64,000 nucleotides of DNA from an uncultured Candidatus Saccharibacteria bacterium (GCA_964574145.1 CAZNKJ010000001.1:16852-80851); one strand, 5' to 3'. Shown: positions 1-58,837, counted from the first letter of the stretch. Notes: generated by a model not told the origin, from the letters alone. Translations and numbers: made by a program.

Positions 1-746
1 GTTGGGTGATTTTCATACACAAGAGCGAACGGCTCTTTAGATTTTATACGGACACTCTTCTTGGCGGTAAGTAACGGATTTGACGATGAAACTGTAACAG
101 AAATATTCAAGCTGTTGAAAAAAGACGCACTTGGGAGTGTTATATTGTGTCTCCCTCTCCCAGATTTACTTCCGAGTATTCGTGAACCAATTTTCCATGT
201 ATAAATTAAACTTTCTGGTGCAATTTTTTTGCCGTTTGTGGAAATAAATTCTGGCACAGCGACTATAGTTACAGGGCTTTGGGAAGTGGCTATAGCTTTA
301 CCTTTATAAAAAGGGGGTGTATAAGTTCTTGCCTCCCATATCAGATCTACATTTGCCGGACGAAAAGTTATTTCTCGTGTAAAACTACCTCGGTCGGGCG
401 TTTGGATTGACACACGTATTAATGTTCGACCACCAATACTTCCTGTTTGAAAGGATGTTTGTTTTTTACCAGTCCCCTTTTCTATAACTTTTCCATCTTT
501 TGTCCAAGTAAAATAAGATTGGTCAATTTCAAAAGAGAAACTTCGAACAAGTATTGTTACATTTTCGTTAGGCCCAGGGTCTCTAGGATAAACATCAAAT
601 GAAAATTGTTCTGTTAGTGGGCTTTGTTGCGATTGCGCATTTGCTATAAAGGAAGATACAAAAAAAAAGGAAAAAATGAAAAACAAAAAAAGAGCAATTC
701 TTATAGAAAAGTTTTGAAATTTACGTTGATTAATTGTTCCCATCAT
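1..746 (-). CDS. Partial CDS for a secreted protein; only the N-terminal ~248 aa lie in the window and the ORF continues past coordinate 1. It is the last visible gene of the T4SS-like operon.
   Basis: Manual minus-strand translation gives MMGTINQRKFQNFSIRIALFLFFIFSFFFVSSFIANAQS... with no stop before the window edge. The N-terminus is a signal peptide. The start lies 69 nt downstream of the preceding minus-strand gene. It is absent from the ORF track because it is truncated by the edge. Confidence 0.5.
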   Translation of the reverse strand, partial: MMGTINQRKFQNFSIRIALFLFFIFSFFFVSSFIANAQSQQSPLTEQFSFDVYPRDPGPNENVTILVRSFSFEIDQSYFTWTKDGKVIEKGTGKKQTSFQTGSIGGRTLIRVSIQTPDRGSFTREITFRPANVDLIWEARTYTPPFYKGKAIATSQSPVTIVAVPEFISTNGKKIAPESLIYTWKIGSRILGSKSGRGRHNITLPSASFFNSLNISVTVSSSNPLLTAKKSVRIKSKEPFALVYENHP

Positions 747-814
747 ATTTACAGTATGTCTTTAAGTATGCCAAGAATAGAGAAGAAAGGGAACTCTTTC
801 TATAGGAGATCTTA

Positions 815-1123
815 TTAAGCTTTTTGGGTAGCCTGTTCCTTGTTGTAATCTTCAATGGTTTTACAGACTGCTATTGTAAAAAACGGGGCAATGTCTAAGA
901 ATGGGATTGCGAATTCCACTAAAGATGCTCCAAAGAAAATAAGGGCGCGTTTAGGTCGTGTAAAACTTACTCCATGTATTAAAAACCAAATATAGAAAAT
1001 AATAAATGCTATAAATGCTATTATGTTTGGTATAAAAACACTCCACGCAAAAAGAAACTGGAGGGTGTCTACCATAATAGCAGTGGTTATAATAAGAACT
1101 GAGCTAGATTTACTTATGCGCAT
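815..1123 (-). CDS. Small integral membrane protein (~3 TM) in the T4SS locus; possible pilin/VirB2-like or accessory subunit
   Basis: 102 aa and highly hydrophobic (FLFAWSVFIPNIIAFIAFIIFYIWFLI). It lies immediately downstream of the VirB4-like gene in the same operon. Confidence 0.45.
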   Translation of the reverse strand: MRISKSSSVLIITTAIMVDTLQFLFAWSVFIPNIIAFIAFIIFYIWFLIHGVSFTRPKRALIFFGASLVEFAIPFLDIAPFFTIAVCKTIEDYNKEQATQKA

Positions 1124-1125
1124 AA

Positions 1126-2976
1126 TTACAAGGAGCCGTTACTGATAGTCGGACCTTCTTCTGTTGGTTTATTCATTTGTAACTCTTGTCTTGCGCGTTT
1201 AATTTCTAATATTTGAGAGGGGTCAGAGGTAATAATCTGATCCTCTGTATATGAAGCAATAACCTTAATGGCGACATGCTTAAGCCCCGCAAAGAATATT
1301 CCCTCCCCAACATCAGATTCAAGTAAAAGATATTTTTCCTCATCACTAAGGTTGAATGTGCTTTGGACAGCGTTAATTGAGGTTGGGGATTGTTTCAAGA
1401 GTATTTGTATAGAAGAGTTGGTTAACATTGGAAGCCCATAGGGTGATTTTAGAAAATCATCAACATCTTGTGTGATAGTAGCTATCCCTAAATAGTATTT
1501 ACGCCCACGTTTTGCCAGTCCATAAAGAAACGAAGCTGTGTCTTCAGATTTCATCATCCACCATGCCTCGTCAATAACCAGAATTCGTTTTTTAAGATTT
1601 CTTCGTATCGCATTCCAAATATAATGAGTAACTATATACATAGCGACTGGCTTAAGGTCGTCTTCCATATCTCTCATTGAAAATACTACAAATTTTTTAT
1701 TAAGATCAACATTAGTTGGTTTATTAATAAAACCAGCCCACGTTCCTTTTGTGTATTTAGAGAGTCGCTGTACAAGAGAGTCGCTTCCTTCCATACCAGA
1801 AAGTACAAGCTCAAAATCTGACAGAAGCGGGGGTTCTATATGAGAAAAATCGGAGTCTCCGGAAATATCCTTCAACGCATATGTTTCAGTAATGGCGCGA
1901 TCAATTAGCGCGTCTTCTTCAGGAGTTATGTTTCCAAGCATAATACGGAACATCCCAACCAGATTTACAATGTTAGAACGTAAGATATCTGCTGCGGATT
2001 CTCCTTCTTGCGGGTTCGGCAAGTCAAACGGATTAATATGATGTTTTGAATTTAGAGAAATGTTAAAATATCTTCCCCCTGTAGCGTCTGCCATGTATTC
2101 ATATTCACGCTCGGGGTCAATAACAATAACTTCTATACCAAACATTAGGCTGCGTAGAATCTCAAGTTTTGCAGCATATGATTTTCCAGAACCAGATGTT
2201 GCGAACATTACAGAGTTATAATTTTCAAGACTAAATCTATCAAATAAAACTAAAGAAGAGTTGTGTCTGTTGATGCCATATAAAATTCCTTTATCAGCAG
2301 TTAGATCAAAAGATATGAATGGAAAAGTACTCGATAGAGGTGCTGAATTTAATTTTGAATGCACGTTCAGTTCGTCGGTCGCTATCGGTAATGTGCTTTT
2401 ATAACCTTGTTCTTGTTGGAATAAAGCGGGTTTTACATAGACAAGCTTTGCTTCAAGTATTGATTTAATTTCAGACTCTGTTTTGTCTAGCTCTTCTTTA
2501 GTGTCTCCATAGATAGTTATATATAACCCAACATCAAAAAGGTGCTCCCGTGCTTGTTGTAGTTGGTCGCGAAGTTGTTCAAGGTCTTGGTGCGCTGTGT
2601 CTAACATTGGATCACGCACAAGACCTCTGTCTTCCCGTGCTCTGATTTGACTTTCAACTTCAGCCACCTTCTTTTGAAATTTTCGTAGTGCGGTAGCGGT
2701 GTCAATTGGGTGTACAAAAATAGAGACATCAAACATTTTGTCCATATTAATAACCGGCGAGAACCAGCTTTCTGTCAAATATCTAGGGTATGAAATAACA
2801 AAAAAACTTCGGGCAATTTTATCTCCAAGCTCAAGTTCGCGAGGGGTAATTTTAAGAGCTGAAGGAGCAATAATATCTTGTAGCTCTAAAACACCGGTAG
2901 CATATATATCCTCGGGTAATATCGGAGCAATAATATTTTTATTTTTTTCTTTCTTTTTCCCAAAAAAGTTAATCAT
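1126..2976 (-). CDS. virB4: VirB4/TrbE/CagE-family type IV secretion ATPase (Gram-positive PrgJ/TraE-like)
   Basis: Walker A motif GSGKSY. The N-terminal block IAPSALKITP...ARSFFVISYPRYL...WFSPVINMD...DVSIFVHPID is typical of Firmicutes VirB4 homologues. A Walker B-like ILVIDEAWWMM motif is present. Confidence 0.85.
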   Translation of the reverse strand: MINFFGKKKEKNKNIIAPILPEDIYATGVLELQDIIAPSALKITPRELELGDKIARSFFVISYPRYLTESWFSPVINMDKMFDVSIFVHPIDTATALRKFQKKVAEVESQIRAREDRGLVRDPMLDTAHQDLEQLRDQLQQAREHLFDVGLYITIYGDTKEELDKTESEIKSILEAKLVYVKPALFQQEQGYKSTLPIATDELNVHSKLNSAPLSSTFPFISFDLTADKGILYGINRHNSSLVLFDRFSLENYNSVMFATSGSGKSYAAKLEILRSLMFGIEVIVIDPEREYEYMADATGGRYFNISLNSKHHINPFDLPNPQEGESAADILRSNIVNLVGMFRIMLGNITPEEDALIDRAITETYALKDISGDSDFSHIEPPLLSDFELVLSGMEGSDSLVQRLSKYTKGTWAGFINKPTNVDLNKKFVVFSMRDMEDDLKPVAMYIVTHYIWNAIRRNLKKRILVIDEAWWMMKSEDTASFLYGLAKRGRKYYLGIATITQDVDDFLKSPYGLPMLTNSSIQILLKQSPTSINAVQSTFNLSDEEKYLLLESDVGEGIFFAGLKHVAIKVIASYTEDQIITSDPSQILEIKRARQELQMNKPTEEGPTISNGSL

Positions 2977-2984
2977 ACTGTTTT

Positions 2985-3632
2985 TTAGTTTAAATTTTCT
3001 TGAAGAGATATTGGTTTCTCAAGCTCTCCTGGGTTAAATAGTTTGTAAAAAAGCTCAATCATTTCCTCAGTCCCAAGTTGTATTACACGAACACCTGTGC
3101 GGGAAATCCCTTGTTCAACAACTGAGACTCTTTGCTGAAGTTGTGTGCGGTTTTCTTCAAAAGATTGACTTTTTTGCTTGTCGCCAACAGCTTTTTTCTT
3201 ATTTCGGAATGAGTCTAAAAAACTACTTTTACTTATTATTATAGATGGTGAAAAAGGCACTACAATAAAAAAACTTTTTGACATTATGTTAGAGTTTTCA
3301 GTAAAATTTTTAACAAAACCGATATATTCACGCACCTGTATGCGCATTAAGTCGTCTGTTTGAGCCTTGTAACGGTCTTCAAGTAGGTTTATATAGGGTC
3401 TAATATCAAGTGCTCGTGACTGTACAAAAAATTGTACAGAAAAATCTAATGAATTAAGAAAGTTTTGAAATTGAAAAAGTATAGACTCCTGTTCATCTTG
3501 TGACTTTAAAGCAAAATTAAGAGATGAGACCATAAGTGTGGCTCTCATAGAGCCGTCATTGAGGATGGCGACACCGTCGCGCACTTCTTTTATGGGTACG
3601 AAATCTTGTGCAGCTTTTGATTTTTTATTCAT
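2985..3632 (-). CDS. T4SS-associated hypothetical protein; possibly VirB4 N-terminal-domain-like
   Basis: 215 aa. The pattern FVPIKEVRDGVAILNDGSMRATLMVSSLNF loosely resembles the N-terminal domain of proteobacterial VirB4. It ends 8 nt before the virB4 start, in a different frame. Confidence 0.4.
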   Translation of the reverse strand: MNKKSKAAQDFVPIKEVRDGVAILNDGSMRATLMVSSLNFALKSQDEQESILFQFQNFLNSLDFSVQFFVQSRALDIRPYINLLEDRYKAQTDDLMRIQVREYIGFVKNFTENSNIMSKSFFIVVPFSPSIIISKSSFLDSFRNKKKAVGDKQKSQSFEENRTQLQQRVSVVEQGISRTGVRVIQLGTEEMIELFYKLFNPGELEKPISLQENLN

Positions 3633-3772
3633 AAATATATGTGATACATGTATCTCATACCATCTTTGTAATTTTATTGATGGATTGTCTCTTAATCAAT
3701 CGGAGATACAATCTATATTATCACGAAGGTTGTTTGACTCAGTCGTACTTATTAACGTATTTTGTAGCTTAC

Positions 3773-4201
3773 TCATTGTTGTTGATTTTTATCGGAGTAG
3801 ATACTCTCTTTAATATCTAGACTCCATGCTAAATCTTTAAGTTTGCTTTTAGATAGAGTAGGAACTATAAGCGTATTAAGATCTTTTTTATTTTTTCCTG
3901 AAGCAGAGCGGATGAGGTTATGTTCTCGTTTTTTCCAAATATAAAGATTGTTTTTTAAGGTAAAGGAAAAAGCTGATTCCAGAATGTTAATAAACGGTCT
4001 GTTGTTAATCTTTATAAATGACAACGCTCCTCCGAGCGCTGCAATGGGGGCTCCTATTAGAAAGACAAGAAATGTTGGAAGAACAGCCCAAAGCATTACT
4101 ATTATCCCGGCTGTTCCTGATAGATAAATAAATTGTCGTAACGTCAACGGACCAAATATTTTATCTTCAACTTCAATAAATTGTGGGACCTGAAAACGCA
4201 T
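3773..4201 (-). CDS. prgI: PrgI-family protein (VirB3-like T4SS membrane component)
   Basis: The N-terminus RFQVPQFIEVEDKIFGPLTLRQFIYLSGTAGIIVMLWAV is followed by a second TM segment, which is the canonical PrgI-family signature. Its position upstream of VirB4 matches Gram-positive T4SS loci. Confidence 0.7.
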   Translation of the reverse strand: MRFQVPQFIEVEDKIFGPLTLRQFIYLSGTAGIIVMLWAVLPTFLVFLIGAPIAALGGALSFIKINNRPFINILESAFSFTLKNNLYIWKKREHNLIRSASGKNKKDLNTLIVPTLSKSKLKDLAWSLDIKESIYSDKNQQQ

Positions 4202-4288
4202 AAGTGGATAGATATCAAGTAATAGTTAACAATATATTTTTTAAGTATACCATGACCTTTTTAAGACCAAATATAAACGTAGTAGGTT

Positions 4289-4825
4289 TTAGTTAATTGA
4301 CTCGCGATATGGATCTATAGAATATGGGCGAGTTTTTTCTTTAGAAGTGGGTGAAGGTAGTAATTCTTTAGTTTGCTGAGTGTTTGCTAAAGATTTTATC
4401 TTTTGTATTTTTTGAGAGGCAGCATCTTCTGTTTTTGTGGAAGTAGGTAATGGTTTCTCTTTTGTATGAATTTGTTTAACATTGTTAGGAAATTCCTCTG
4501 TTTCATTCGTTCTTTCTTCTTTAAGTTCTTTCTTAAGTTTGCTAAATATCTTATTTTCAATTGCTAGAATTATTTGTTCTGCTGCTTCCTTAGATATTCG
4601 CAGGCGTTCTATAAGGTGTGTCACAAATTCGCTTTCTCTGGTAAATCCGAGCAGAACAAGTCCTACTTCATCGGCTAATTTACTAACCTGTTCATTACTT
4701 AATTGCAGGGTTTTACTAATGATACCAACGGCGTTTGCTGTATCTACGGAATAAAGGGTGTCCTGAGTGACTTTTGGGAGCTGGTTAAAACGTTTTTGTA
4801 CTTGTTCAGTTGTTGGGTTGTTCAT
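4289..4825 (-). CDS. Hypothetical protein in the T4SS operon, charged and K/E-rich
   Basis: 178-aa ORF with no recognisable motif; called from operon context only. Confidence 0.35.
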   Translation of the reverse strand: MNNPTTEQVQKRFNQLPKVTQDTLYSVDTANAVGIISKTLQLSNEQVSKLADEVGLVLLGFTRESEFVTHLIERLRISKEAAEQIILAIENKIFSKLKKELKEERTNETEEFPNNVKQIHTKEKPLPTSTKTEDAASQKIQKIKSLANTQQTKELLPSPTSKEKTRPYSIDPYRESIN

Positions 4826-4849
4826 GTCTTAAAAAAGTTAAGTTTAGTT

Positions 4850-7096
4850 TTAGAGGGGGCCCTCTTTTTTCTTTATTACTTTTGTCCACTCATCTTCAGC
4901 AATCTCTTTTGCAGTTTTTTTATTTTCTGATGATGAAGAAGGCTTGTGGGTAGTATCTGTTCCTTTTCCTTGTGCCCATACACGCTGCGCGGGTACTGAT
5001 CGGAAATAATCAGCAGCAGTTTGACGAGATCGTTTTGCTGCGGAAAGTTTCTCCTCATTCTTTTTTGGATCTGCATCTAGATTTATATCAAGCATTTTTT
5101 CATCAACTTTTTCAAGAAAATCAGCAATTGAAGAGAGGTCTTCTGTATCAACCTCTTCTATTCCGTTCTGACCCTTGAGACGTTTGGAGAGTTCTTTAAT
5201 GTGTTCTATGTAACTAGACGTGAGCTCGTCTTTTCTCATACCTAAAGCAGCTGAATGACCCCCTGAGTAGGTTAGGACCATAGCATCTAACATCTTATCT
5301 ACATTTTCTTTATTATCTCCTGTGTGTGAAACAATCACTTTGTCTAGTTTGGAGACGTCAGTAGCTCTTTGTTTGGAAACATTTGTTGCAATTTTTTCAA
5401 GAGAATCTGTTTCTGGGCGGAACTTATCAAGAGTGGATGTAGAGACTCCTGTATTTTTAGCCAAAGCTCTGGCCTGTTGAATTTGCTTAAAACTTAACGA
5501 GCCAAGATCTTCTTTTTTAGTAATAGCTTGAGTTATAGCAGCTTTGTCTATAGGAAGTGTGAATTTTCCAAGTCTTCGTTTTAATTCTGGAGTACTAAAC
5601 TTTTCAAGCTTAGCTGACTTCTTTTTTATATCATCTCTATAAGACTGTGATACGTCTTGTAACCCTTCTCTTACTCCAGGAACATGTGACGCGGCTTTTC
5701 CAATAGGGCGGGCGACTTTCATTATCCCATGCATTGGGTTGAGGCGGTGGCGTTTTTGAGCTTCTCCACTCTCAATTTCGCGGGCAAGTGGAGCGAGACG
5801 ACGTTTTGTCCACCTACCACCAACCTTAAAACCAGCCCCAACACCTTTTTGTGCCCATCCTGTTGCCTTAGATGCCCCAAATATACTCATTTGTTTTGCT
5901 ATAACCAAAGAAGCAATAGTGAATGCCATTACGATTAAGAAATTTACCAAAATAACAACAGAACCTGGGTCTCCTGTTGTTAGTCCGCTAAATTTTGCAC
6001 TCGTCATCGTATTACCGTTTGCATCTATAAGTCCAATACTTTGTCTAAAACCATCACCCTCAACAATTCTGAGAGTAAACCATGTAAACAGAAAAAAAAT
6101 TGGAGCAAATAATGCGTTATTTATAAGGGCATTCCACCATTTAGAGGCAAGTCCGCTGAATTTTGGTATAGCCATAGCCACAAATGCGAGAGGTGACAGA
6201 ATCATTAAAAAGATAAGGATTACAAATCTGGAAATAAGTATTAATGCCGCTGCAAAAAAAACAGCAGCAGTTATTATAAATAACAACGATGACATTATTC
6301 CTATTAAGAATATATTTTCCGTATTTAATCTATTAGAATTAATTTCTCCTGTTTTTGTGTCAAATCCGTATAGAGACGTTAAAGAAAGTGCCTTCATGTA
6401 GCGTGTTGCGATACCACCTCCCGCTTTTAATTTTTCAACTAAGGATGGGTTTGTGTTTGCGTCTATTCCAACTGATTTATAATAAAATTGTGTAGCCAGT
6501 ATATTACTTACATCAATCACTATGTTAGTGAAGAACAGGCTGAAATTTATAAGGAGCGCTATTATAATTACACGCACTAAAAGATCTTTCATTCTGTAGC
6601 CGGACACTCTGAGAATAGTAGAAATTCCTATAATAAGAAGTAGGAAAATGAGAACTATGTTTGCCAAATCACGGAAAGTTGCCCAACCAACACTGATAGC
6701 TGTAATTTGCTTCACCATAACTGACATTTGCACCACTGTTTGGAAGGATACATAATTTAGAAGTAGTCCGCTTGCCCATACCAAAATGGCAAAGAAACCC
6801 ATTATTGCCAGCATTAAATAAGCCATAGCGCTTTTAAACTGTCTCATAAACCACCCGTCTCCTTCTTTAGAGCTGTCGTTACTATCACTTCCCGAAGTGG
6901 CTTCTATGGAACTTTCTGACCCGGGACCAGATATTGGGCCATCTTCATCTACCCCAACAACTTTGTTAGCGGCCTCTATGTAAGAAGTATTCAATATTTG
7001 TTTAGAGTAATTAGCTGAAATAGGGGTAAAAACCCCAATAGAAAATATCACCATCAGTAATATTCCTAGCACAGTATTTTTTATTGGGAAATTCAT
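4850..7096 (-). CDS. VirB6/TrbL-like polytopic membrane protein with a long hydrophilic C-terminal extension
   Basis: 748 aa with an N-terminal signal/TM and at least 8 hydrophobic helices across residues ~90-420. A ~300-aa charged C-terminal tail follows. The size and topology match Gram-positive VirB6 analogues (PrgH/TraL-like). Confidence 0.55.
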   Translation of the reverse strand: MNFPIKNTVLGILLMVIFSIGVFTPISANYSKQILNTSYIEAANKVVGVDEDGPISGPGSESSIEATSGSDSNDSSKEGDGWFMRQFKSAMAYLMLAIMGFFAILVWASGLLLNYVSFQTVVQMSVMVKQITAISVGWATFRDLANIVLIFLLLIIGISTILRVSGYRMKDLLVRVIIIALLINFSLFFTNIVIDVSNILATQFYYKSVGIDANTNPSLVEKLKAGGGIATRYMKALSLTSLYGFDTKTGEINSNRLNTENIFLIGIMSSLLFIITAAVFFAAALILISRFVILIFLMILSPLAFVAMAIPKFSGLASKWWNALINNALFAPIFFLFTWFTLRIVEGDGFRQSIGLIDANGNTMTSAKFSGLTTGDPGSVVILVNFLIVMAFTIASLVIAKQMSIFGASKATGWAQKGVGAGFKVGGRWTKRRLAPLAREIESGEAQKRHRLNPMHGIMKVARPIGKAASHVPGVREGLQDVSQSYRDDIKKKSAKLEKFSTPELKRRLGKFTLPIDKAAITQAITKKEDLGSLSFKQIQQARALAKNTGVSTSTLDKFRPETDSLEKIATNVSKQRATDVSKLDKVIVSHTGDNKENVDKMLDAMVLTYSGGHSAALGMRKDELTSSYIEHIKELSKRLKGQNGIEEVDTEDLSSIADFLEKVDEKMLDINLDADPKKNEEKLSAAKRSRQTAADYFRSVPAQRVWAQGKGTDTTHKPSSSSENKKTAKEIAEDEWTKVIKKKEGPL

Positions 7097-8529
7097 AAGG
7101 AGTTCTGAGAGGTGTTATTAGTTGAACCACATTCGGCAATGGCGGTATTGATGTTGGTTTGAAGTGATTTCATTTCTTGGATTATACTAGCACTTTCTTT
7201 TCGTGCGATTCTAATATCTGCTTCTGTGCGCAAAGCGCCGCTGGTTTGTAGGTCAAGAAATGGTTGTATCGCAGTTTTAAGGTCGTTTGGGTTTGAAGCT
7301 GTTGATATTTCTGTCTGTATAGTATTAAGATTTTGAAGTCTTTGTTCTGAGAGAGTCGCTTTTTCTGATATGGAATTTTTTCTCAATAAAATAGTTGAGG
7401 TAAATAGCCCTGTTTTAATAGGGTCACATGTGCTTAGTGTCGCATTTAGTTTTTCTGTTGAGAGAATTGTACTTAAACTGCTGAGTACGGTGTTTTTGTA
7501 AGTCTCTTCAATTTTAATAGCTGAGCTAATCTCTTTAGAGACAGTTTCTTTAGCTTTGTTTAAAATCTTATTAGTGGCTGTGGAATCTGCTCGTAGTCGT
7601 GAGGTGTACGAAGGTTGTCCATTTTGGTTTTGGCTAAGTCCGAAGAGTCCACCTGACCCGCTAAGTGCTTGTTGTGTAAGTTGAGTAAGAAGAGCCCCTA
7701 TTATTTCATCAATTTCATCTGCGACTATTAATCTGTTACGTCCTGAGTCAAGGGTGTCGTTAAGCTGTGACTCAATAACCTTGCCTGGGGTAACTACAGG
7801 ACAGTTTGCTGTGCTGATGGAGTCGGTGGCTCCCGATCCGCCACATTCTTTCCAGGAAAGAAAACCATTTCCCCAGTCAAGGAGTTTTAATTCACGACCT
7901 CTTGCATTTACAATACGAGCATTAAGGCTTTCAGAAGCTTGAAGATATCTTGAATAAGGATTATCTTGCACAGTCAATTCATACCACCCATCCCACCCCC
8001 CTGATTCAAAGTTTCCGGATAAAAAATTATCTATATTATTAACCACATTACTAAGACGGCACTCTATCGTTTTGCCAAAAGAAGAATTGTAATTTATAGC
8101 AAGGGCTCGGCGTATCTGTAGTTGAAATGGGTCACACAATAAACCAAGCTCAGTTCCTTCTATGAAGGAACCAGCAACTTTATCTGAAATATCAGTAAGG
8201 AAACCCCCTAAGTCAGTAACAAATGCCGGATTACCGTCAAAACCAGAGTTTATCCAGTTAACAATATTATGAGACATTTCTTGTATCACAATATTTGCTA
8301 TAGCCCACCCAATTTTATCTAAGGCATATTCTTTTACAACAAGTGTTTGGCTACCACTTGCAGAAATAGCAGTAAAGCCAGTAATTTGAGATATGAAGCC
8401 AAGTTGCGGTCCCACTTCAGTGGTGGGAATGGCCTCAGCTTTTTTGTATGGATATAGTAAAAAAACTGAAGTTAGTAGGGTTAGTGCCAGTAGAGAAATA
8501 AATTTTTGTTTGTGTGCAGAGTGTATCAT
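7093..8529 (-). CDS. Secreted hypothetical protein (signal peptide); candidate T4SS surface or channel component
   Basis: 478 aa with the signal peptide MIHSAHKQKFISLLALTLLTSVFLLYPYKKAEA. An ATGA start/stop overlap with the upstream gene suggests translational coupling. Confidence 0.45.
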   Translation of the reverse strand: MIHSAHKQKFISLLALTLLTSVFLLYPYKKAEAIPTTEVGPQLGFISQITGFTAISASGSQTLVVKEYALDKIGWAIANIVIQEMSHNIVNWINSGFDGNPAFVTDLGGFLTDISDKVAGSFIEGTELGLLCDPFQLQIRRALAINYNSSFGKTIECRLSNVVNNIDNFLSGNFESGGWDGWYELTVQDNPYSRYLQASESLNARIVNARGRELKLLDWGNGFLSWKECGGSGATDSISTANCPVVTPGKVIESQLNDTLDSGRNRLIVADEIDEIIGALLTQLTQQALSGSGGLFGLSQNQNGQPSYTSRLRADSTATNKILNKAKETVSKEISSAIKIEETYKNTVLSSLSTILSTEKLNATLSTCDPIKTGLFTSTILLRKNSISEKATLSEQRLQNLNTIQTEISTASNPNDLKTAIQPFLDLQTSGALRTEADIRIARKESASIIQEMKSLQTNINTAIAECGSTNNTSQNSL

Positions 8530-8534
8530 CGTAT

Positions 8535-9524
8535 TTAAAAAGGCAGATTGTTTAATAAGTATCCATCTTCGTTTTTATTGAAAGTTATATTTTTTTGCGT
8601 GAAATAGGTCTGCATATTTTTTAAAGATTGTGCTGTTTTTGCTGAATCAGTAGTATATTTTTTAAGCTTTACTAAAGCCTGCAACGGGTCAATAAATAGG
8701 TTTCTAAGGCTGGTTAAAGAATCATACAGAGAAGAAATATTATTTATAAGCTCGAGATGGATATTTACAGCACTATTTGGTGTAGGTACAGCAAGAAGAT
8801 TGTCCACAATGTCTTTATAGCTCTTTAGGATAGAGTCTAGTTTCTTTAGCTCATTTGGTTTGTTCCCAATCACCGCTTTTTCAACAATATCAAGCGCTCG
8901 TTCTCTTCCAGAATTTCCATATATTTTCAATACAGAACCCATTTGATTTCCAAAAGTTCTTATAGTTTCTGGAGTTTCCTTAACAACTATAATATCATTT
9001 ATATTATATATTGTTGGGGTGGTAGAGAGGATTTTTTTAGCTTTTTCTAAAAGAATTTTTGTTTGTGTAGGGTCTTTTAGTTTTCCAGATTTACGCAAAC
9101 TCATATAATCAGTGAAAAATTGTTGTGAAAAAATCTCAGTAGAGTTTAAAGAAGTAGAATCTTTAGTAAGAGGTGCTACTTTTACATTTAGGTAGTCATC
9201 GGGACCTTTTTTGAGTGGGTTTCGATTTAGATCCACCTCTTCTCCATCTTTTGTGCCATCACCGTCTGTGTCGGGATTGTTTGGGTCTGTATTCCATAGT
9301 GTCTCTTCCCAATCAAGCAAGCCGTCTTTGTCACGGTCATTATTTCTAAGTTTTTTTTGGAGAACACCAGTTATATTTTTTTCCGCGAAATCTGTTTGAA
9401 TATTTTTGTTGAGAGCAGAGCTTTTTGAAGTATGGAATGATAAATATAGAAAAATTGCAAAAACAAAGAGCGTTAACAGCCCCCCTGCGGCAAATATTCT
9501 AATTGTGCGTGGTAATAATTGCAA
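8535..9524 (-). CDS. Membrane-anchored protein with thrombospondin-type-3-like Ca-binding repeats; first gene of the T4SS-like operon
   Basis: An N-terminal TM segment (IFAAGGLLTLFVFAIFLYL) is followed by the repeats DKDGLLDWEE...DTDGDGTKDGEEVDLNRNP, which fit the DxDxDG pattern. Confidence 0.5.
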   Translation of the reverse strand: MQLLPRTIRIFAAGGLLTLFVFAIFLYLSFHTSKSSALNKNIQTDFAEKNITGVLQKKLRNNDRDKDGLLDWEETLWNTDPNNPDTDGDGTKDGEEVDLNRNPLKKGPDDYLNVKVAPLTKDSTSLNSTEIFSQQFFTDYMSLRKSGKLKDPTQTKILLEKAKKILSTTPTIYNINDIIVVKETPETIRTFGNQMGSVLKIYGNSGRERALDIVEKAVIGNKPNELKKLDSILKSYKDIVDNLLAVPTPNSAVNIHLELINNISSLYDSLTSLRNLFIDPLQALVKLKKYTTDSAKTAQSLKNMQTYFTQKNITFNKNEDGYLLNNLPF

Positions 9525-9620
9525 AATAATACCCCCTTATTACCTTTTTAGTATACCGCACCTTAGCATTAGAGCTATGTGTGATTAATAAGAAATGTTG
9601 AAAAATGGATGTAAAATATT

Positions 9621-10418
9621 TTATCTTTTTTTAAAATGGCGCGTAATTTGTATCCAATTCTCAAGACTGATATCCTCAGCTCGTACATTGCTTGGAATAT
9701 TGAGTTTATGAAACATGGCTGTTAATAGTTCAGGTTTAATCAGAGATTTAAGATTACTTTTTAAAAATTTTCTTTTTTGTGCAAAACCTGTTTTAACCAC
9801 TTCAAAAAAAAATCTCTCATTTATGTCAGCAAGTTTTTTGTTATTTATATCTTCTATCATTAAAACTGCAGAAGAAACGTTGGGTTCTGGTCGAAAAGCT
9901 TTTTTCCCCACAGTTCGTATGTATTTAGGAGAGCCGAATGCTTTAACAGATATAGACAGAACACTTTCTTTTTCACCTAATGAGTGCCCCACTATCCTTC
10001 TAGCCACCTCCTTTTGAAGAAGAAACACTATCATCGTTGGTTTTATTTTTCCACTTAAAAAGGTTCTCAGTAGTTCACCTGTAATATAGTAAGGAATATT
10101 CGCAATAAGTTTAAAAGGATGTTTGGAAAAATGATATTTTTTTAAATCAACATCTCGCACATCTGCGATTATAAGTTCTAAAAAGCCAGAATCTATTTCG
10201 TTTTTAAATTGCGTAGATATTTTTTCAGCTAAGATAGGGTCTTTTTCAATAGTGGTTACATGGCCTGCGTATTTTAAAAGCTCTTTTGTTAGCATCCCTT
10301 TACCAGGTCCTATTTCAAGCACATAGTCGTTTTTTTTTAATTTCCCTGCTGCCACTATAGAAGCTAGAACTTTTTTGTCTTTTAGAAAGTGTTGTCCTAG
10401 TCGGGCTTTTGTTTTCAT
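9621..10418 (-). CDS. rsmA: 16S rRNA (adenine1518/1519-N6)-dimethyltransferase RsmA/KsgA
   Basis: GQHFL-D motif and the EIGPGKG SAM-binding motif; length 265 aa. Confidence 0.9.
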   Translation of the reverse strand: MKTKARLGQHFLKDKKVLASIVAAGKLKKNDYVLEIGPGKGMLTKELLKYAGHVTTIEKDPILAEKISTQFKNEIDSGFLELIIADVRDVDLKKYHFSKHPFKLIANIPYYITGELLRTFLSGKIKPTMIVFLLQKEVARRIVGHSLGEKESVLSISVKAFGSPKYIRTVGKKAFRPEPNVSSAVLMIEDINNKKLADINERFFFEVVKTGFAQKRKFLKSNLKSLIKPELLTAMFHKLNIPSNVRAEDISLENWIQITRHFKKR

Positions 10419-10498
10419 GTCTTAGATTTAGTTATGAGTGTAATGTAATGAATATTTCAGATGTTTTTGGACTCTTATTAGGAGTGAAATGAGTATAA

Positions 10499-12451
10499 TT
10501 AATCTATATATACCACGCTTCCACTCTCTTCCCCACTCCACTCTATAGTTTCTGTGTACACATCATCAATGTCGGTGATAAACTCTGACGGGATGTTTAT
10601 TTTCCGTGACCCAAAGATAGTTCTTATAGATGTGTAAGTAAGAAAGAGCTTTTTCTTTGCACGGGTTAAGGCTACATAAAAAAGACGTCGTTCCTCTTCT
10701 TCGTCAATACGCTCCGCTGAAATTTTTTTGTGAGGGAATAAGCCTTCTTCAAGTCCTGTGATAAATACAGTATCAAATTCCAATCCCTTAGACGCATGGA
10801 CTGTCATTAATTTTACAGCGTCTTTTTCTTCTTTTATTTCATCTTGGTCTGTCGCAAGAGCGGCGTCTTCTAAAAGTTTCTCCACTCCTTCTTCAGGGGT
10901 GAGAGTGTCGTATCGCATAGCAAGAGTTACTAATTCATGTATGTTTTCCAGACGTTCTTGTTCGTCACTTGTTCCTTTACGTAAAACTTCTTCCAGCCCA
11001 CTCTTTTTAAGTACAAACAAAATAGTTTTAGATATCGGCTGTGTTTGTGCGCACTCTCGTATTTGAGTCAAAAGATTTTGAAATTCAGCTACATTTTTCT
11101 TGGCTCGTGGTGAAAGGAGGTCTTCTCTGTGGGTAGTTATTTTAAGCAGTGTTACTTTCCCAATACCACGCGGAGGAACATTTACTATACGTTTTATGTC
11201 ACTTAGACTTTCTGGGTTAATGGCGACGCGTATAAAGGAGAGAATGTCTTTCACTTCTTTACGTTCAAAAAAACGGACACCCAATACTTGGTATGGGACC
11301 TCGTTTGCTAGAAAGGCTTCTTCAAGTGCGCGTGATTGAAAATTTGCTCTATACAAAACAGTAATGTCTTTTGCAGAGGTACCAGCGCTGATTTCTTTCA
11401 AAGATTGTTTTGCTATAAAAATAGCTTCTGCGTTTTCATCGTAAACAGATACCAAGGCAACTTTCTCCCCTTTTGGGTTGTCGGTAAATAATTTTTTCTC
11501 TTTCCTCTGTTTATTTTTTTGTATAATAGTATTTGAAACTTCCAATATTGTTTTGGTGGATCTATAATTTTGTTCTAAAAGAAGAGTTGTCGTTTTTGGA
11601 TATTTTTTTTCAAACGCAAGGATATTGTCAATATTGGCTCCCCGCCAGCTGTATATATTTTGATCTATATCTCCAACAACACAAATATTATTTTTAGGTG
11701 CTGTAAGAGTATGTGCTATACGGCATTGTACCAAGTTTGTGTCTTGGTACTCATCGATATGAATATATTGCCATAGACTTCTATAGTGGTTTCGAATATT
11801 CTCATTTTTAATAAGCAGATTCAATGTTTTTAGAAGAAGGTCGTCAAAATCAAGAGCTTTTTCGTTAAATAAGATTTTTTCATATTCTTTCCATACTGAA
11901 ATAATTGTACGGGGGTAAAAACCACTATTATTTTTTTCATATGATTCTAATGTTAAAGCGTTCCCCTTAGCTCGTGAAATAGAGCTTAATATTTTACGTG
12001 GCTCAAACTGTTTAGGGTCTACCCCAACAATTTTTGTTGCTTCTTTTATTGCGCGGATAGAGTCATTTCGATCAAAGATCGTAAATGAGCGTGGGAGTCC
12101 CAGAATCTGCGAATTAGACCTGAGGATTTGTACACCCAATGCGTGGAAAGTTGAAATGAAAGGAACCCCTCTTCTTTTTTCAATATTTTCATGGGAGTTT
12201 CTTGACTGGAGTAGTTCTAATACTCTTCCACGCATTTCTTTTGCCGCTTTGTTTGTAAAAGTGACAGCCAGAATGTTTTCTGGAGATACACCATTGTGGA
12301 CAAGATTCAGGATTCTGTGTGTGATAACTCTGGTTTTTCCAGCACCAGCACCAGCTAAGATTAGAAGAGGTCCGTTTCTATGCAAAACAGCCTTTTTTTG
12401 TTCCTCGTTAAGGTTTTTCATGTTTAATATAGAGACATCATACCATGTCAC
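10499..12451 (-). CDS. pcrA: UvrD/PcrA-family ATP-dependent DNA helicase
   Basis: The N-terminus LNEEQKKAV...LILAGAGAGKTRVITHRI carries the Walker A motif. Length is 650 aa with helicase motifs throughout. Confidence 0.9.
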   Translation of the reverse strand: MTWYDVSILNMKNLNEEQKKAVLHRNGPLLILAGAGAGKTRVITHRILNLVHNGVSPENILAVTFTNKAAKEMRGRVLELLQSRNSHENIEKRRGVPFISTFHALGVQILRSNSQILGLPRSFTIFDRNDSIRAIKEATKIVGVDPKQFEPRKILSSISRAKGNALTLESYEKNNSGFYPRTIISVWKEYEKILFNEKALDFDDLLLKTLNLLIKNENIRNHYRSLWQYIHIDEYQDTNLVQCRIAHTLTAPKNNICVVGDIDQNIYSWRGANIDNILAFEKKYPKTTTLLLEQNYRSTKTILEVSNTIIQKNKQRKEKKLFTDNPKGEKVALVSVYDENAEAIFIAKQSLKEISAGTSAKDITVLYRANFQSRALEEAFLANEVPYQVLGVRFFERKEVKDILSFIRVAINPESLSDIKRIVNVPPRGIGKVTLLKITTHREDLLSPRAKKNVAEFQNLLTQIRECAQTQPISKTILFVLKKSGLEEVLRKGTSDEQERLENIHELVTLAMRYDTLTPEEGVEKLLEDAALATDQDEIKEEKDAVKLMTVHASKGLEFDTVFITGLEEGLFPHKKISAERIDEEEERRLFYVALTRAKKKLFLTYTSIRTIFGSRKINIPSEFITDIDDVYTETIEWSGEESGSVVYID

Positions 12452-12756: not shown

Positions 12757-13764
12757 TTGAGCTTAGTTTTATTGAGCTTCTTTTTTGTATTTCCTGTGTC
12801 CGCTAATGCAAATATTTTTTCATACATATCTTCTTTTTTGTTTCCCAAAGATCAAGCGGCTCAAACAAACACCGCAGCTTCTTTAAATTCTCAAACTATT
12901 CCGCTTTTGCGCGCCGCTCTAAATATTGACCCAAATCCATCAAAAGGAGGAGGGGGTATCCTAATTGTAGGAGGAGTTTCTCTTTTATCAGAGACAGGTC
13001 CTTCAGGTACTATTGCTGATATTGAAGAAAGTCCTGCAACTTCAGACCAAATAAGTGTTTATGTTGTTCGTGAAGGAGATACTCTGTCTCAGATTGCGAG
13101 TATGTTTGGAGTTTCTGTAAATACCATAAGATGGGCAAATAATATTCGTTCTTCAAAAAGTATTCATGAAGGACAAACTCTTGTGATTCTTCCTATTTCT
13201 GGTGTTAGACATACTGTGGTAAAGGGAGACACTCTAAAGAGTATTACAAAAAAATATGATGGAGATTTAGGTGATGTGCTGAGTTATAACAATCTTACTA
13301 AAGATTCCCCGCTTGTAATTGGAAATATTGTAGTAATACCAAACGGAGAAGTTCCTGCACCAAAAGGTTCTATATATAAAAAGAAAAGGACTTCCCGCAT
13401 TGTTTCTAATGGTCCATTATATAAAGGTTATTACATAAGGCCTGTTAAGGGGGTTCGCACACAGGGGATCCATGGATATAATGCTGTTGATATGGGGGCA
13501 CCAAAAGGTACGCCAATCGTTGCTTCTGCTTCGGGTAAGGTTATCGTGAGCAGAAATGCTGGGTGGAATGGTGGATATGGAATTTATATTGTAATCAAAC
13601 ACAGCAATGGTACTCAGACACTTTATGCGCATAATAGCCGTAATATTGTATATACGGGAAATTCAGTGATCCAAGGACAAGTGATTGGATACATTGGCTC
13701 AACAGGACGTTCAACAGGACCTCATGTTCATTTTGAAGTCAGGGGCGCACGCAATCCATTCTAG
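12757..13764 (+). CDS. Secreted LysM-domain M23 metallopeptidase (cell-wall hydrolase)
   Basis: Signal peptide present. Two LysM repeats (YVVREGDTLSQIASMFGVSVNTIRWAN and HTVVKGDTLKSITKKY). The C-terminal M23 motifs are HNGTQTLYAHN...GYIGSTGRSTGPHVHFEV. The start is apparently TTG. Confidence 0.85.
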   Translation: MSLVLLSFFFVFPVSANANIFSYISSFLFPKDQAAQTNTAASLNSQTIPLLRAALNIDPNPSKGGGGILIVGGVSLLSETGPSGTIADIEESPATSDQISVYVVREGDTLSQIASMFGVSVNTIRWANNIRSSKSIHEGQTLVILPISGVRHTVVKGDTLKSITKKYDGDLGDVLSYNNLTKDSPLVIGNIVVIPNGEVPAPKGSIYKKKRTSRIVSNGPLYKGYYIRPVKGVRTQGIHGYNAVDMGAPKGTPIVASASGKVIVSRNAGWNGGYGIYIVIKHSNGTQTLYAHNSRNIVYTGNSVIQGQVIGYIGSTGRSTGPHVHFEVRGARNPF

Positions 13765-13888: not shown

Positions 13889-15442
13889 TCACATCACTTG
13901 GTTATTTTTTGGGCGATACTGCAGGGCTTCAAGCATATGGTCCGTTTCAATAGAATCTTTTTCACTTAAGTCTGCAATAGTTCGCGCAAGCTTAATGACT
14001 CTATGATAAGCGCGAGGAGACAGATCAAGTTTAGTTGCTGCTTGGTTAAGTAGCTCGCGAACCTGTCTATTTAAGATAATAAAATTATCTATATTTTTAA
14101 TTCCCAGTTCACTATTTGTGTTGATGTCTTTATTTAAATCTGTAAAACGTTTTTGTTGTAAAGCACGGGCTTTTACAACCTGATTTGCCATTTTAAAAGA
14201 CTCTCCTTTTGTTTTTTCCTCAGAAAGTTTTTTATAGTCAATAAGTGAAACTTCAATCCACATATCTATGCGGTCTACTATTGGCCCAGATATTTTTTTT
14301 CTGTAGCGTTCAAGTGAAAGAGGTGAGCAGTTGCATTGTTTGTTGCTACCAAAATTACCGCAAGGACATGGGTTTAGAGCAGCTATTAGAATAAAATTAG
14401 CGGGAAAGTGAGCTGTCCCTTTTGATCGAGCTATTGTTATAGATCTTTCTTCTAATGGCTCGCGTAGAGATTCAATCACCCTTCTGTCAAATTCTGGAAA
14501 TTCATCAAGAAAAAGAACTCCACGATGTGCCAGAGTGACCTCTCCTGGGCGTGGTACAGTACCTCCTCCTACTATTGATACGTATGAAGACGTGTGATGG
14601 GGTGATCTAAAAGGAGGAGATGTTACGAGGTTGTTTTCTAATGCTCCGGCAATAGAGTGGATACCTGTGGTTTCAAGTACAGCTTCTAGATTAAGGGGTG
14701 GAAGAATTGATGTAAAAGCGCGTGCAAGCATTGTCTTTCCAGTACCAGGAGGTCCATAAAGGGCGATATTATGGCCGCCAGATGCGGCAATCAGAAGACC
14801 CCTTTTTGCAGTTTCTTGCCCTCTAATATCATCCATTTCAACAGAGTAAGGTGGAGTAATATAGGATATTTTTGTTTTCTTATGTGGAGAAAGTATCTTT
14901 TGTACACCTTCCCCATCTTTCTTTTTTAGATTTAAATGATCAATAAGTTCACGAAGTGTCTGTACTCCGTAAACTTTGATCCCTTTGACAAGAGATCCTT
15001 CCTTTGCATTTTTAAAAGGTAGGAATATTTCCTTGAACCCATTCTTCTTCGCATTTAAGACAAGCGGTAAAATCCCACGAATAGGTTGTAATTCTCCATC
15101 AAGAGAAAGCTCCCCAAGGAATATCTTTTTTTCTGGATCAAAGGTTATATCTCCAGTAGCAAGTAGATAAGCAAGAGCTATTCCAACGTCAAAAATCGGA
15201 CCTTCTTTTTTAAGATTAGCGGGAGCCAGAGAGATGACTACTTTTTGATTTTTACTTTTAGGAGAATCATAACCTGTATTTTTTATTGCAGCCGAAACGC
15301 GATCTTTAGATTCCTCAACAGCTTTATCAGGAAGACCTACAAGTGAAAAAGCGTGGAGTCCTCGCGAGAGGTCAATTTCTATAGAAATGGTTTGAGCTTT
15401 AAGAATGGAAGTCTGCGCACTGTATACTTTTGCAAAGCTCAT
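13889..15442 (-). CDS. comM: YifB/ComM-family Mg-chelatase-like AAA+ ATPase
   Basis: An N-terminal Lon-like domain, Walker A GPPGTGKTMLA, and a C-terminal Mg-chelatase subunit ChlI-like region; 517 aa. Confidence 0.85.
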   Translation of the reverse strand: MSFAKVYSAQTSILKAQTISIEIDLSRGLHAFSLVGLPDKAVEESKDRVSAAIKNTGYDSPKSKNQKVVISLAPANLKKEGPIFDVGIALAYLLATGDITFDPEKKIFLGELSLDGELQPIRGILPLVLNAKKNGFKEIFLPFKNAKEGSLVKGIKVYGVQTLRELIDHLNLKKKDGEGVQKILSPHKKTKISYITPPYSVEMDDIRGQETAKRGLLIAASGGHNIALYGPPGTGKTMLARAFTSILPPLNLEAVLETTGIHSIAGALENNLVTSPPFRSPHHTSSYVSIVGGGTVPRPGEVTLAHRGVLFLDEFPEFDRRVIESLREPLEERSITIARSKGTAHFPANFILIAALNPCPCGNFGSNKQCNCSPLSLERYRKKISGPIVDRIDMWIEVSLIDYKKLSEEKTKGESFKMANQVVKARALQQKRFTDLNKDINTNSELGIKNIDNFIILNRQVRELLNQAATKLDLSPRAYHRVIKLARTIADLSEKDSIETDHMLEALQYRPKNNQVM

Positions 15443-20727: not shown

Positions 20728-21582
20728 CTAGTTGGAAACGGGCACACCTTGTTTGCCTTTGTCCTCGTCGCGCTTTCTTCGAATGAAGGTGCGAACGAAG
20801 TAGACTGCAAACTCCAGCGAGACCAGACCAACGCAGAATGCGATCCACTCAAGGAGTGCTGAATTTGTAACATCATCCATTGCAAAAATTCCAGCAAATA
20901 CGGTAATGAAAAATCCAATAATCCAGCCCCCAAAAATTCCAGCAATTACGCTGACAGACCTCGCAGTAGCTGGACTTATGACATTTCCGGCAGCGGTTGC
21001 TACAGATACACTTGCAAAAATTCCAGCAATTACGCCTGTAAGCATCGCAACTAGTGGACTCACGACAGTCCCAATGAGAACCCCAACAATGATCCCCACA
21101 ACAATTCCAAAGCTCGCAGGTCTCCACACTAAGGATTTTCCAAAAGTTCCTGAGATGAATGTTGCTATGACCATTAGAATCATAATTCCTTGGAAGTCGT
21201 TCCTTGCGCTTATAGATGTAAGGGATTTACTGCTCCAGTCACCTTCGTCGTAAAAAATCGTTACCGTAGTCAAGGAGTTTTTCGGAGGGAATATGCTTGA
21301 AAGCGAAGATTCCCTACTGACTTCTGGTGAATAATACCTAATGGCTCTCCTCAGCTGAAGTGAGTTTAGCTCTATTCCCTTCGAGCAGAGCGTTTTCACC
21401 AACGTCTTGAGACTGTCTGACGCTGGTATTGCCGTTGCGGACATTTTTAACTGTGCTGTAGGTGGAGATAAACATGCTTCTGATGTTCTTGCCATTGTTG
21501 GTGTTTGATCAACAGCAATGGCAGGAGTGTTCACCAACACTCCCCCAACCAAAATTATCGCAATTCCTATGGATTTCCACAT
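20728..21582 (-). CDS. Hypothetical membrane protein with a signal peptide and Gly-zipper-rich C-terminal TM bundle
   Basis: The likely start is MWKSIGIAIILVGG (the ORF-track start at 21654 has an unlikely N-terminus). The C-terminal region carries GxxxG-type repeats (GIIVGVLIGTVVSPLVAMLTGVIAGIFASV). Confidence 0.45.
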   Translation of the reverse strand: MWKSIGIAIILVGGVLVNTPAIAVDQTPTMARTSEACLSPPTAQLKMSATAIPASDSLKTLVKTLCSKGIELNSLQLRRAIRYYSPEVSRESSLSSIFPPKNSLTTVTIFYDEGDWSSKSLTSISARNDFQGIMILMVIATFISGTFGKSLVWRPASFGIVVGIIVGVLIGTVVSPLVAMLTGVIAGIFASVSVATAAGNVISPATARSVSVIAGIFGGWIIGFFITVFAGIFAMDDVTNSALLEWIAFCVGLVSLEFAVYFVRTFIRRKRDEDKGKQGVPVSN

Positions 21583-21681
21583 AACCAAATACCTTTCTTT
21601 GTAAGTAAGGTGGGTGTACTCTTTTCGTCTACTTCTAGTAGAACACATCTGCACGTATTATGCAACCCCTGTGGTGTTTAC

Positions 21682-21713
21682 CATTGTGCGACATTGTAAA
21701 ATGTCGCACAATG
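21682..21713. promoter_or_regulatory. Perfect 14-bp inverted repeat (CATTGTGCGACATT-GTAA-AATGTCGCACAATG) abutting the xerC start; putative operator or 5' mRNA hairpin
   Basis: Direct read of 14 + 4 + 14 nt with a perfect reverse complement. It ends 8 nt before the xerC ATG, within a 67-bp divergent intergenic region. Confidence 0.4.
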
Positions 21714-21721
21714 TAGAATGT

Positions 21722-29160: not shown

Positions 29161-29180
29161 TGATTTGATTGTACTTATAT

Positions 29181-46247: not shown

Positions 46248-46272
46248 GAGTGGTAATAAACTTTTTATTTTT

Positions 46273-47493: not shown

Positions 47494-47497
47494 GAGA

Positions 47498-49249: not shown

Positions 49250-49328
49250 TCATATGTATAAGAATAAAAAATCTACCAATCCGCGTTTTTTACTTTTCTT
49301 TGTAAAAGAAAGGATGTCTTCTATAAGT

Positions 49329-58553: not shown

Positions 58554-58600
58554 ACTAAGCAGTTTTTTGCTAAAAAAGAGGCTACTCAGCTTCATTTTAC

Positions 58601-58837
58601 ATGATACCATGTGGAGATATGATGCGTATTATTCTTTCATTGGTTGTTGTTATGGCTGTTGTTATTCTAGCTCTCGTATATTTAAACGGACATTCTATTT
58701 CAGCACCAAAAAATTTAAATGATGCCACAAAAACAGAGCGTTGTGCAAAATTTAGACAAGTAGACGAAGAAGACAATGGTGTATATTCGCTCGGGTACGG
58801 TGGACGTATACGTCAGCTTATTCATGGTTGTTTTTAA
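58601..58837 (+). CDS. Small hypothetical membrane protein
   Basis: 78 aa with one TM (IILSLVVVMAVVILALVYL), followed by a strong terminator. Confidence 0.35.
   Translation: MIPCGDMMRIILSLVVVMAVVILALVYLNGHSISAPKNLNDATKTERCAKFRQVDEEDNGVYSLGYGGRIRQLIHGCF

Follow-up and report, generated by a model that had tools for sequence, protein, structure and literature searches.

The type IV secretion systems (T4SSs) closest to the one described here are those of the Patescibacteria, or Candidate Phyla Radiation (CPR). In a survey of 3,035 Patescibacteria genomes, VirB4 formed a monophyletic clade nested in MPF_FATA, with TrsD as the commonest associated component and PrgI/VirB3, VirB6 and VirB2-like pilins encoded near virB4 (Quinonero-Coronel et al., 2025; PMC12102498). 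In the same survey relaxases are almost absent, type IV coupling protein (T4CP) genes are rarely close to virB4, and VirD4-like genes lie far from it in most genomes; the systems of Paceibacteria and Microgenomatia are found near dnaA, dnaN, rnpA, ksgA and rpmH. Transposon sequencing (Tn-seq) has shown that the T4SS genes and pilins of Southlakia epibionticum are essential for its epibiotic growth, and neither coupling nor relaxase proteins are recognisable in that T4SS (Wang et al., 2023; PMC10633639). Construction of a pilus or conduit by the system has been put forward, as speculation, in a 2025 review (PMC12857230). Such loci are among the few candidate machines for host exploitation by the ultrasmall, biosynthetically crippled CPR bacteria. 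Here I analyse a 64,000-nucleotide (nt) stretch of DNA, hereafter the window, deposited under an uncultured Candidatus Saccharibacteria bacterium (GCA_964574145.1, CAZNKJ010000001.1:16852-80851), whose first 9,524 nt carry a block of T4SS genes. This locus is very probably a chromosomal, non-conjugative T4SS typical of Patescibacteria; the chances that it forms a pilus and acts as a host-directed translocator are about even.

The block shares with the Patescibacteria-clade systems (PMC12102498; SEML1_0006-0019 of S. epibionticum, PMC10633639) an MPF_FATA-type VirB4 with a separate TrsD, a PrgI/VirB3 protein, a VirB6 and a VirB2-like pilin, the lack of a relaxase and of an adjacent T4CP, a host that appears to belong to the CPR, and a chromosomal site near dnaA, dnaN, rnpA, rpmH and ksgA. 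Every tested defining feature matches the published systems. This is a kind of system already described between 2023 and 2025, and the locus adds no new principle. It differs from them in that it encodes a single short pilin (130 residues), not an array of 2–11, and has no peptidase or lysozyme gene directly downstream of virB4, a peptidase with M23 and LysM domains being encoded 3 kb away, beyond pcrA. It also carries six lineage-conserved accessory genes for which no counterpart is named in PMC12102498 or PMC10633639; their uncharacterised products, five of which belong to the envelope, are possibly its only undescribed content. Finally, essentiality has been shown, by Tn-seq, only in the Saccharibacterium S. 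epibionticum.

Core components of the block

A Logan contig (L001) that is 100% identical to window positions 1–4342 adds 8.9 kb to the left, bringing the DNA inspected to ~73 kb; identical sequence also occurs in GCA_006243245.1, GCA_006243105.1 and SRR6439370. Proteins were scanned against Pfam and NCBIfam profiles, and bit scores were judged against the cut-off of each family. For synteny, 80 loci from distinct species-level genomes were gathered via the VirB6-family alignment, the window proteins were mapped onto each, and gene order was compared on those contigs that reach far enough. These genomes are titled Paceibacterota, Zambryski-, Kaiser-, Taylor-, Campbell- or Wolfebacteria, or Patescibacteria group.

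ORF calls and translation recovered the nine co-directional minus-strand open reading frames (ORFs) that a first-pass annotation of the window had placed at positions 1–9524, at the coordinates it gave (Table 1). With the left extension, the full block comprises 11 co-directional genes, in the order p329, p478, VirB6, p178, PrgI, TrsD, VirB4, p102, p353, pilin and p414, all intact, the pilin, p414 and most of p353 lying just outside the window. The annotation had also described tight packing, with ATGA overlaps and gaps of 2–69 nt. The ATGA overlap of the p478 and virB6 genes (7093–7096) holds; the range does not, the spacings being 5, -4, 24, 87, 140, 8, 2 and 68 nt. The largest, a non-coding gap between prgI and trsD (3633–3772), compares with 3–8 nt in the spot-checked relatives L013 and L036, and holds nothing but a promoter-like site at chance level; in the promoter and terminator scan overall, counts were likewise at chance level. 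A signal or transmembrane (TM) segment is predicted in 9 of the 11 products; TrsD and p178 (cytoplasmic) are without one, as is VirB4.

Table 1. Genes of the T4SS block, in block order, and of the type IV pilus cluster of the window (positions are those of the window unless L001 is named).
Feature	Position	Strand	Remarks
p329, 329-aa membrane-anchored protein with thrombospondin-type-3 Ca-binding repeats and a helical C-terminal domain	8535..9524	-	First gene of the block
p478, 478-aa secreted or anchored all-alpha protein	7093..8529	-	Uncharacterised family; overlaps virB6 by ATGA
Putative extended VirB6-like polytopic protein, 748 aa	4850..7096	-	Assigned from homologues and predicted fold
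p178, 178 aa, without TM segment	4289..4825	-	No known family; presumably cytoplasmic
PrgI-family protein (VirB3 analogue), 142 aa, two TM segments	3773..4201	-	PF12666
TrsD-like protein, 215 aa, the VirB4 N-terminal domain as its own gene	2985..3632	-	8 nt upstream of virB4
VirB4-family ATPase, 616 aa, Firmicutes/MPF_FATA type, without the usual N-terminal domain	1126..2976	-	
p102, 102-aa membrane protein, three predicted TM segments	815..1123	-	Directly downstream of virB4; no known family
p353, 353-aa secreted protein (codons 1–248)	1..746	-	N-terminal signal/TM segment; remainder past the window edge
VirB2-like pilin, 130 aa	L001 4661-5053		Just left of the window; PF18895
p414, 414-aa anchored protein with faint TolB/PD40 propeller signals	Left of the window, on L001		Beyond the pilin gene
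PilB-like T2SSE ATPase	44496-46247	+	Family scan
PilC-like T2SSF protein	46273-47493	+	Family scan
CarboxypepD_reg/PEGA protein, 583 aa	47498-49249	+	
N_methyl pseudopilin	49254-49931	+	
476-aa protein, no family	Within 44496-51358	+	In the type IV pilus cluster

The motor is well defined. The proposed Firmicutes-type VirB4 matches the NCBIfam model conju_CD1110 with 371.5 bits (cut-off 325) over profile positions 185–733 of 752, and Pfam P-loop_TraG with an E-value of 7e-25. The Walker A (ATSGSGKS) and Walker B (ILVIDE) motifs are both preserved, and the protein is 26% identical to residues 215–772 of PrgJ from pCF10 (E 6e-43). The N-terminal portion missing from VirB4 is encoded by the 215-residue ORF upstream, whose identity the first-pass annotation had overlooked: it matches the N-termini of VirB4 models (CD1110 positions 2–118; Mbov_0397, a Mycoplasma VirB4 model, positions 98–233) and NF041427 TrsD/TraD (E 2.8e-6), and its precomputed Pfam annotation is PF26593 (TraC-like). 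A separate trsD ORF of ~196–222 residues recurs in 56 of the 80 loci, with ~61% identity across related loci, and the split between VirB4 and TrsD is therefore not a frameshift.

PrgI, also correctly recognised in the first-pass annotation, scores 38.2 bits against PF12666 (cut-off 27) and possesses two hydrophobic segments; it is present in 56 of the 80 loci at 40–61% identity, about 51% being typical. The pilin, which that annotation could not see past the edge, combines a signal peptide with two TM segments and matches PF18895 with 28.6 bits (cut-off 26.6), its relatives reaching up to 38.7 bits.

Two side observations concern the pilin family. A weak match, below the cut-off, was obtained to the NCBIfam family of pilin-like conjugal transfer proteins of Mycoplasma integrative and conjugative elements (ICEs), Mbov_0395 (E 5.7e-5), and the neighbouring ATPase model of the same elements, Mbov_0397, is matched by VirB4 and TrsD. 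The pairing of both resemblances is a hint that pilin-like proteins may not be wholly absent from MPF_FATA systems. In addition, the pilin ORF encodes 200–500 residues in many relatives (L071 17198-18169, L080, L058, L010, L047, L037, L083 18223-19719 and others), owing to a C-terminal extension of 100–350 residues of unknown family, Cys-rich in L071 and with one weak CHAP match in L083; the pilin of the present block is the short form. The small membrane protein p102 was considered as a second pilin and rejected, its hhalign probability against the pilin family being 0.3%.

The 748-residue protein is a less direct case. The first-pass annotation had called it VirB6-like, and considered that a missing match to VirB6 models would weaken the call; in this respect it is weakened, as there is no direct Pfam match at E<=0.1 and no NCBIfam VirB6 match, and the PF04610 gathering score is not reached. 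The profile of its family also finds nothing significant among PDB sequences. However, 426 homologues are found in the database, several annotated as PF04610 or PF19590, and PF04610 (TrbL/VirB6) is matched individually by 14 of 36 aligned homologues (best E 1.1e-7). Its topology comprises ~8 hydrophobic segments within residues 1–400, followed by a hydrophilic C-terminal tail of ~330 residues. In an AlphaFold model built on the homologue alignment, a TM core spanning residues 80–420 is predicted with a pLDDT of ~85–95. Searching the PDB with this core (Foldseek) returns chains of TrwI/VirB6 from plasmid R388 at the top (8rt9_F, 7o3v_J, 8rtd_L), at probability 1.0 and target TM-scores of 0.43–0.48 with weak E-values of 0.02–0.05; VirB6 chains account for 8 of the top 12 matches. 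On the strength of the homologue annotations, the member-wise PF04610 matches and the VirB6-like predicted fold, I accept it as a putative extended VirB6, its membership being transitive through homologues and fold.

These components place the locus between two groups of characterised machines. With the Gram-positive MPF_FATA systems (PrgH/I/J of pCF10, TrsC/D/E of pGO1) it shares the PrgJ-like VirB4, the PrgI-family VirB3 analogue and a single membrane, and with the pGO1 subclass also the separate TrsD-like VirB4 N-terminal domain. In contrast to those conjugative systems, a relaxase, a PcfC-type T4CP, a PrgK-type hydrolase, a PrgL/VirB8-like protein and an LPXTG adhesin are not recognised here; the VirB2-like pilin is lacking there, and they are carried by plasmids or ICEs, whereas the present locus is chromosomally fixed (see below). 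With the stalk of the R388/pKM101-type (MPF_T) systems it shares the predicted TM core that best matches TrwI/VirB6, and the helical secreted p478 directly upstream of, and overlapping, virB6, which resembles the virB5-virB6 adjacency. Unlike these, the organism is presumed monoderm, the outer-membrane core VirB7/9/10 is not found, VirB6 carries a cytoplasmic tail of ~330 residues, and p478 has no detectable similarity to VirB5 (TrwJ).

Chromosomal position and conservation

The flanks of the block are housekeeping genes. On the right, family scans bear out the rsmA and pcrA genes named in the first-pass annotation. On the left, L001 continues from p414 into jag, yidC, rnpA and rpmH and, divergently, dnaA and dnaN, an origin-proximal position that the annotation had also missed. 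Where the contig reaches, the order comM, M23 peptidase, pcrA, rsmA, 11-gene block, jag, yidC, rnpA, rpmH, dnaA is kept in most of the 80 genomes. The locus offers a clean Parcubacteria-type example that is complete at both ends, rsmA marking one boundary and jag/oriC the other. Since the closest loci and homologues are titled accordingly and the housekeeping flanks are syntenic with theirs, the host is, as judged from sequence, a Patescibacterium with a Parcubacteria/Paceibacteria-type genome. One contig of the set, L046 (JBEBJM010000026.1; 7.8 kb), is titled 'Nitrospira sp.' and carries a Parcubacteria-type pcrA-rsmA-p329-p478-VirB6 arrangement; it is probably mis-binned.

In five loci (L020, L022, L048, L057 and L066; ~12–18 kb in each) rpsG-fusA-tuf comes directly after VirB6/p178, where the block ends. 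The module made up of p329, p478, VirB6 and p178 is therefore separable from the one running from PrgI to p414. Conservation is uneven across the block: VirB4 is 69–82% identical (median 78%) to that of 51 related Parcubacteria-labelled loci, while the membrane and surface parts share ~30–40%, VirB6 being ~35% identical across related loci. The difference between VirB4 and VirB6 indicates strong purifying selection on the motor, and the gene order holds although VirB6 has diverged so far.

The sign of the GC skew flips near dnaA-dnaN, the plus strand of the window being G-rich, which fits a replication origin at dnaA-dnaN, beside the block; DnaA-box counts in L001 are at chance level. The T4SS block, rsmA and pcrA (window 1–12451, L001 1–13217) read towards this origin, an orientation conserved in the related loci, so that the T4SS operon appears to be head-on to replication though origin-proximal.

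No relaxase, T4CP/VirD4 or integrase was found in window 1–9524, as the first-pass annotation had stated. The scan covered 36 of the 37 non-overlapped window ORFs longer than 200 residues, including those of 312 and 240 residues and leaving out 57945–58610 (221 residues), and detected no relaxase, VirD4-type protein or ICE integrase in them. The leftward extension, proposed earlier as the place to look for VirD4 and a relaxase, likewise contains no relaxase, VirD4 or integrase in its 8.9 kb. The sole recombinase among the scanned ORFs is of the XerC/XerD type (21614–22627, ~247 bits to both models), 12 kb from the block; an integrase with flanking att repeats is not in evidence, no search aimed at the repeats having been made. 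GC content is uniform across the window, with no island signature.

These data bear on whether the locus could be a degraded or domesticated ICE, with the T4SS genes as relics. The VirB4, PrgI and TrsD families are indeed those of Gram-positive conjugative elements, and a tyrosine recombinase is encoded at the distance given above. However, a relic is difficult to reconcile with intact ORFs throughout and preserved VirB4 Walker motifs, with the high identity of VirB4 across 51 loci, and with an 11-gene order fixed between housekeeping genes; the recombinase scores equally as XerC and XerD, and neither an island signature nor a relaxase or T4CP came out of the scans. I consider this origin exceedingly improbable, and reject it on account of the synteny, the Xer-type recombinase and the uniform GC content. 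The same gene order between the same housekeeping genes, the flat GC content, and the absence of relaxase, VirD4 and integrase nearby support instead an apparatus fixed in the chromosome over a mobile element, as had been suggested in the first-pass annotation for an episymbiont-type genome. The published studies point the same way (PMC12102498; PMC10633639).

Chromosomal T4SSs without a relaxase or an adjacent coupling protein are found elsewhere, in Bordetella Ptl, Brucella VirB and Helicobacter ComB, which serve protein export or DNA import. Those are, however, diderm MPF_T systems with VirB7-10, and beyond VirB4, VirB6 and VirB2 any kinship is at most at the superfamily level. The comparison with ComB nevertheless raises the question of whether the present system is an uptake machine, importing host DNA or other macromolecules, with PcrA and ComM processing the incoming DNA. 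Relaxase and T4CP are absent here as in H. pylori ComB, for which this is established knowledge (the comparison is raised in PMC11665869), and pcrA and comM are neighbours in 61 and 38 of the 80 loci respectively. In class ABY1, comF, recG and radA lie beside the T4SS (PMC12102498), and Patescibacteria lack de novo nucleotide synthesis (PMC10633639). Against this, genes for a canonical uptake route are already present in the window (type IV pilus PilB/PilC at 44.5–47.5 kb, ComEC at 56359–57864, and RecJ), synteny near oriC in tiny genomes may reflect conserved gene order only, and no VirB7/9/10-type ComB components are present in an organism presumed monoderm. In addition, the passage of a review that cites Wang et al. 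(2023) states that S. epibionticum lacking comEC is no longer competent yet stays viable, whereas its T4SS is essential (PMC12857230); any import by the T4SS would therefore have to be independent of ComEC. An uptake role of this kind seems quite unlikely to me.

A further neighbour, the peptidase with M23 and LysM domains (12757–13764, plus strand), is conserved in 51 of the 80 loci. Some VirB1-like proteins carry M23 or LysM domains in the published survey (PMC12102498), and the peptidase might therefore supply the missing wall-hydrolase function.

Accessory proteins and possible function

Six uncharacterised proteins, five of the envelope, accompany the core genes across the 80 species-level genomes. 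Of these, p329 is present in 73 of the 80 loci. The Ca-binding repeat noticed in the first-pass annotation is real: p329 matches TSP3_bac with 27.4 bits (cut-off 25). Of 30 homologues, 23 contain the repeat, and the motif DxDxD...WEE is almost invariant. Against the PDB, the p329 profile matched only through this Ca-binding repeat, to Ca-binding regions of a biofilm-associated surface protein (7c7u) and of lanmodulin.

p478 is found in 70 of the 80 loci. Its family of 272 homologues shows conserved Cys and Trp columns, and hardly any member carries a Pfam domain. Structure prediction, which had been put forward as a check for this protein as well as for the 748-residue one, gave the VirB6-like core described above for the latter and a poor model for p478: on an alignment of 42 sequences the mean pLDDT is 62, the C-terminal helical bundle alone being confident and the conserved N-terminal half falling below 50. 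A Foldseek search of the PDB with this model returned generic helical bundles only, with nothing at E<=0.001, and is uninformative because the conserved half is modelled so poorly. Neither Foldseek nor a profile search of PDB sequences detected similarity to VirB5, and a member-wise Pfam scan of the family revealed no shared family. A single homologue (P0135) matches DUF4141 with 31.5 bits (cut-off 30), which is a lead only; in Bacteroides conjugative transposons, the genes of DUF4141 proteins lie between traG and traJ (PMC10434189).

In other T4SSs, virB5 neighbours virB6. By analogy of position, p478 could speculatively be the VirB5-like partner of VirB6.

The other four are more obscure. 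p178 has no family match and no hydrophobic segment, and a weakly similar protein occurs at the same position in 63 of the 80 loci; p102, also without a family match, has a homologue in the same position in 36. The full p353 ORF (L001 3597–4658) encodes one N-terminal hydrophobic segment, the portion inside the window having the signal peptide expected from the earlier description of a secreted protein running off the edge; Pfam gives Ig_3 and Lmo2446-like_N, sub-threshold only, and a homologue is present at the same position in 46 loci. The family profiles of p478, p414 and p353 found nothing significant among PDB sequences. Ten family profiles were also compared with single pCF10 proteins from PrgC to PcfC (hhalign), without a match, a comparison of low power in which the PrgI-versus-PrgI control reached just 19%.

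I propose that the TrsD and VirB4 ATPase pair would dock on a platform of VirB3 (PrgI) and VirB6 in the single membrane. Powered by this pair, the VirB2-like pilin would be extracted and polymerised to give a filament or conduit at the cell surface, and the Ca-binding p329, the all-alpha p478, the immunoglobulin-like p353 and the propeller-like p414 would form its wall-spanning or host-contacting part. The machine may serve the interface between epibiont and host, through transfer of macromolecules or proteins or through contact and adhesion, and not conjugation. The data show the gene identities, the split VirB4, the fixed synteny and the absence of relaxase, T4CP and integrase nearby; pilus formation, the substrate, the direction in which it would be transported and a part played in host interaction are what I infer. 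Taken as a whole, a Patescibacteria non-conjugative T4SS beside the origin, working by this mechanism, is probably the best explanation of the locus.

Several points weigh against this explanation. A VirD4-like gene likely exists elsewhere in the genome, outside the ~73 kb inspected. There is no Pfam or NCBIfam match to a VirB8-like (PrgL/TraM) or VirB1-like (PrgK/TrsG) protein inside the block, and none of the six accessory proteins (p329, p478, p178, p102, p353, p414) is tied to a known T4SS component. VirB4 is a putative member of the Patescibacteria clade, placed there by similarity and context. Lastly, the role of the system has been called 'completely unknown' even in Saccharibacteria (PMC11665869).

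In another view, VirB4, VirB6 and VirB3 would assemble a VirB2-like pilus for adhesion or contact only, without translocation. A pilin gene lies within the block, no T4CP is encoded nearby for substrate recruitment, and Ca-binding, immunoglobulin-like and propeller-like surface proteins are co-encoded. However, the window also holds genes for a separate type IV pilus, a system for adhesion and motility, and the Ptl and Brucella VirB systems still secrete proteins without a T4CP (PMC12102498). A filament serving adhesion only seems quite unlikely to me.

The six syntenic, family-less proteins might instead be structural subunits that replace the VirB5, VirB8, VirB1 and adhesin functions, with p478 as the VirB5-like one. 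The locus would then represent a new pilus-forming single-membrane T4SS, and might import macromolecules of the host independently of ComEC, in connection with PcrA and ComM; I regard this as unlikely. For structural or genetic studies of what the system does, the block provides a defined set of parts.

Other genes of the window

The type IV pilus cluster (44496–51358, plus strand; Table 1) is a second surface machine, ~35 kb away from the T4SS block. Genes for competence and recombination are spread over the window: ComM (Mg-chelatase-like) at 13889–15442, RecJ at 53773–55518, and a ComEC 'Competence' domain protein at the position given above. An ORF with a metallo-beta-lactamase fold (59208–60065), 1.3 kb downstream of the ComEC ORF, may be a split-off ComEC C-terminal domain. 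Rfam and tRNA scans revealed only four tRNAs, far from the T4SS locus.

An efflux pair of the resistance-nodulation-division (RND) type is encoded at 29169–33816 (plus strand), consisting of an HlyD-type membrane-fusion protein and a 1043-residue AcrB-family transporter (E 4e-184), in a genome that is presumed to be single-membrane. Finally, the start of the XerC/D-type recombinase gene overlaps a divergent ORF of 308 residues without a family (20728–21654), and one start codon of this pair is probably over-called.

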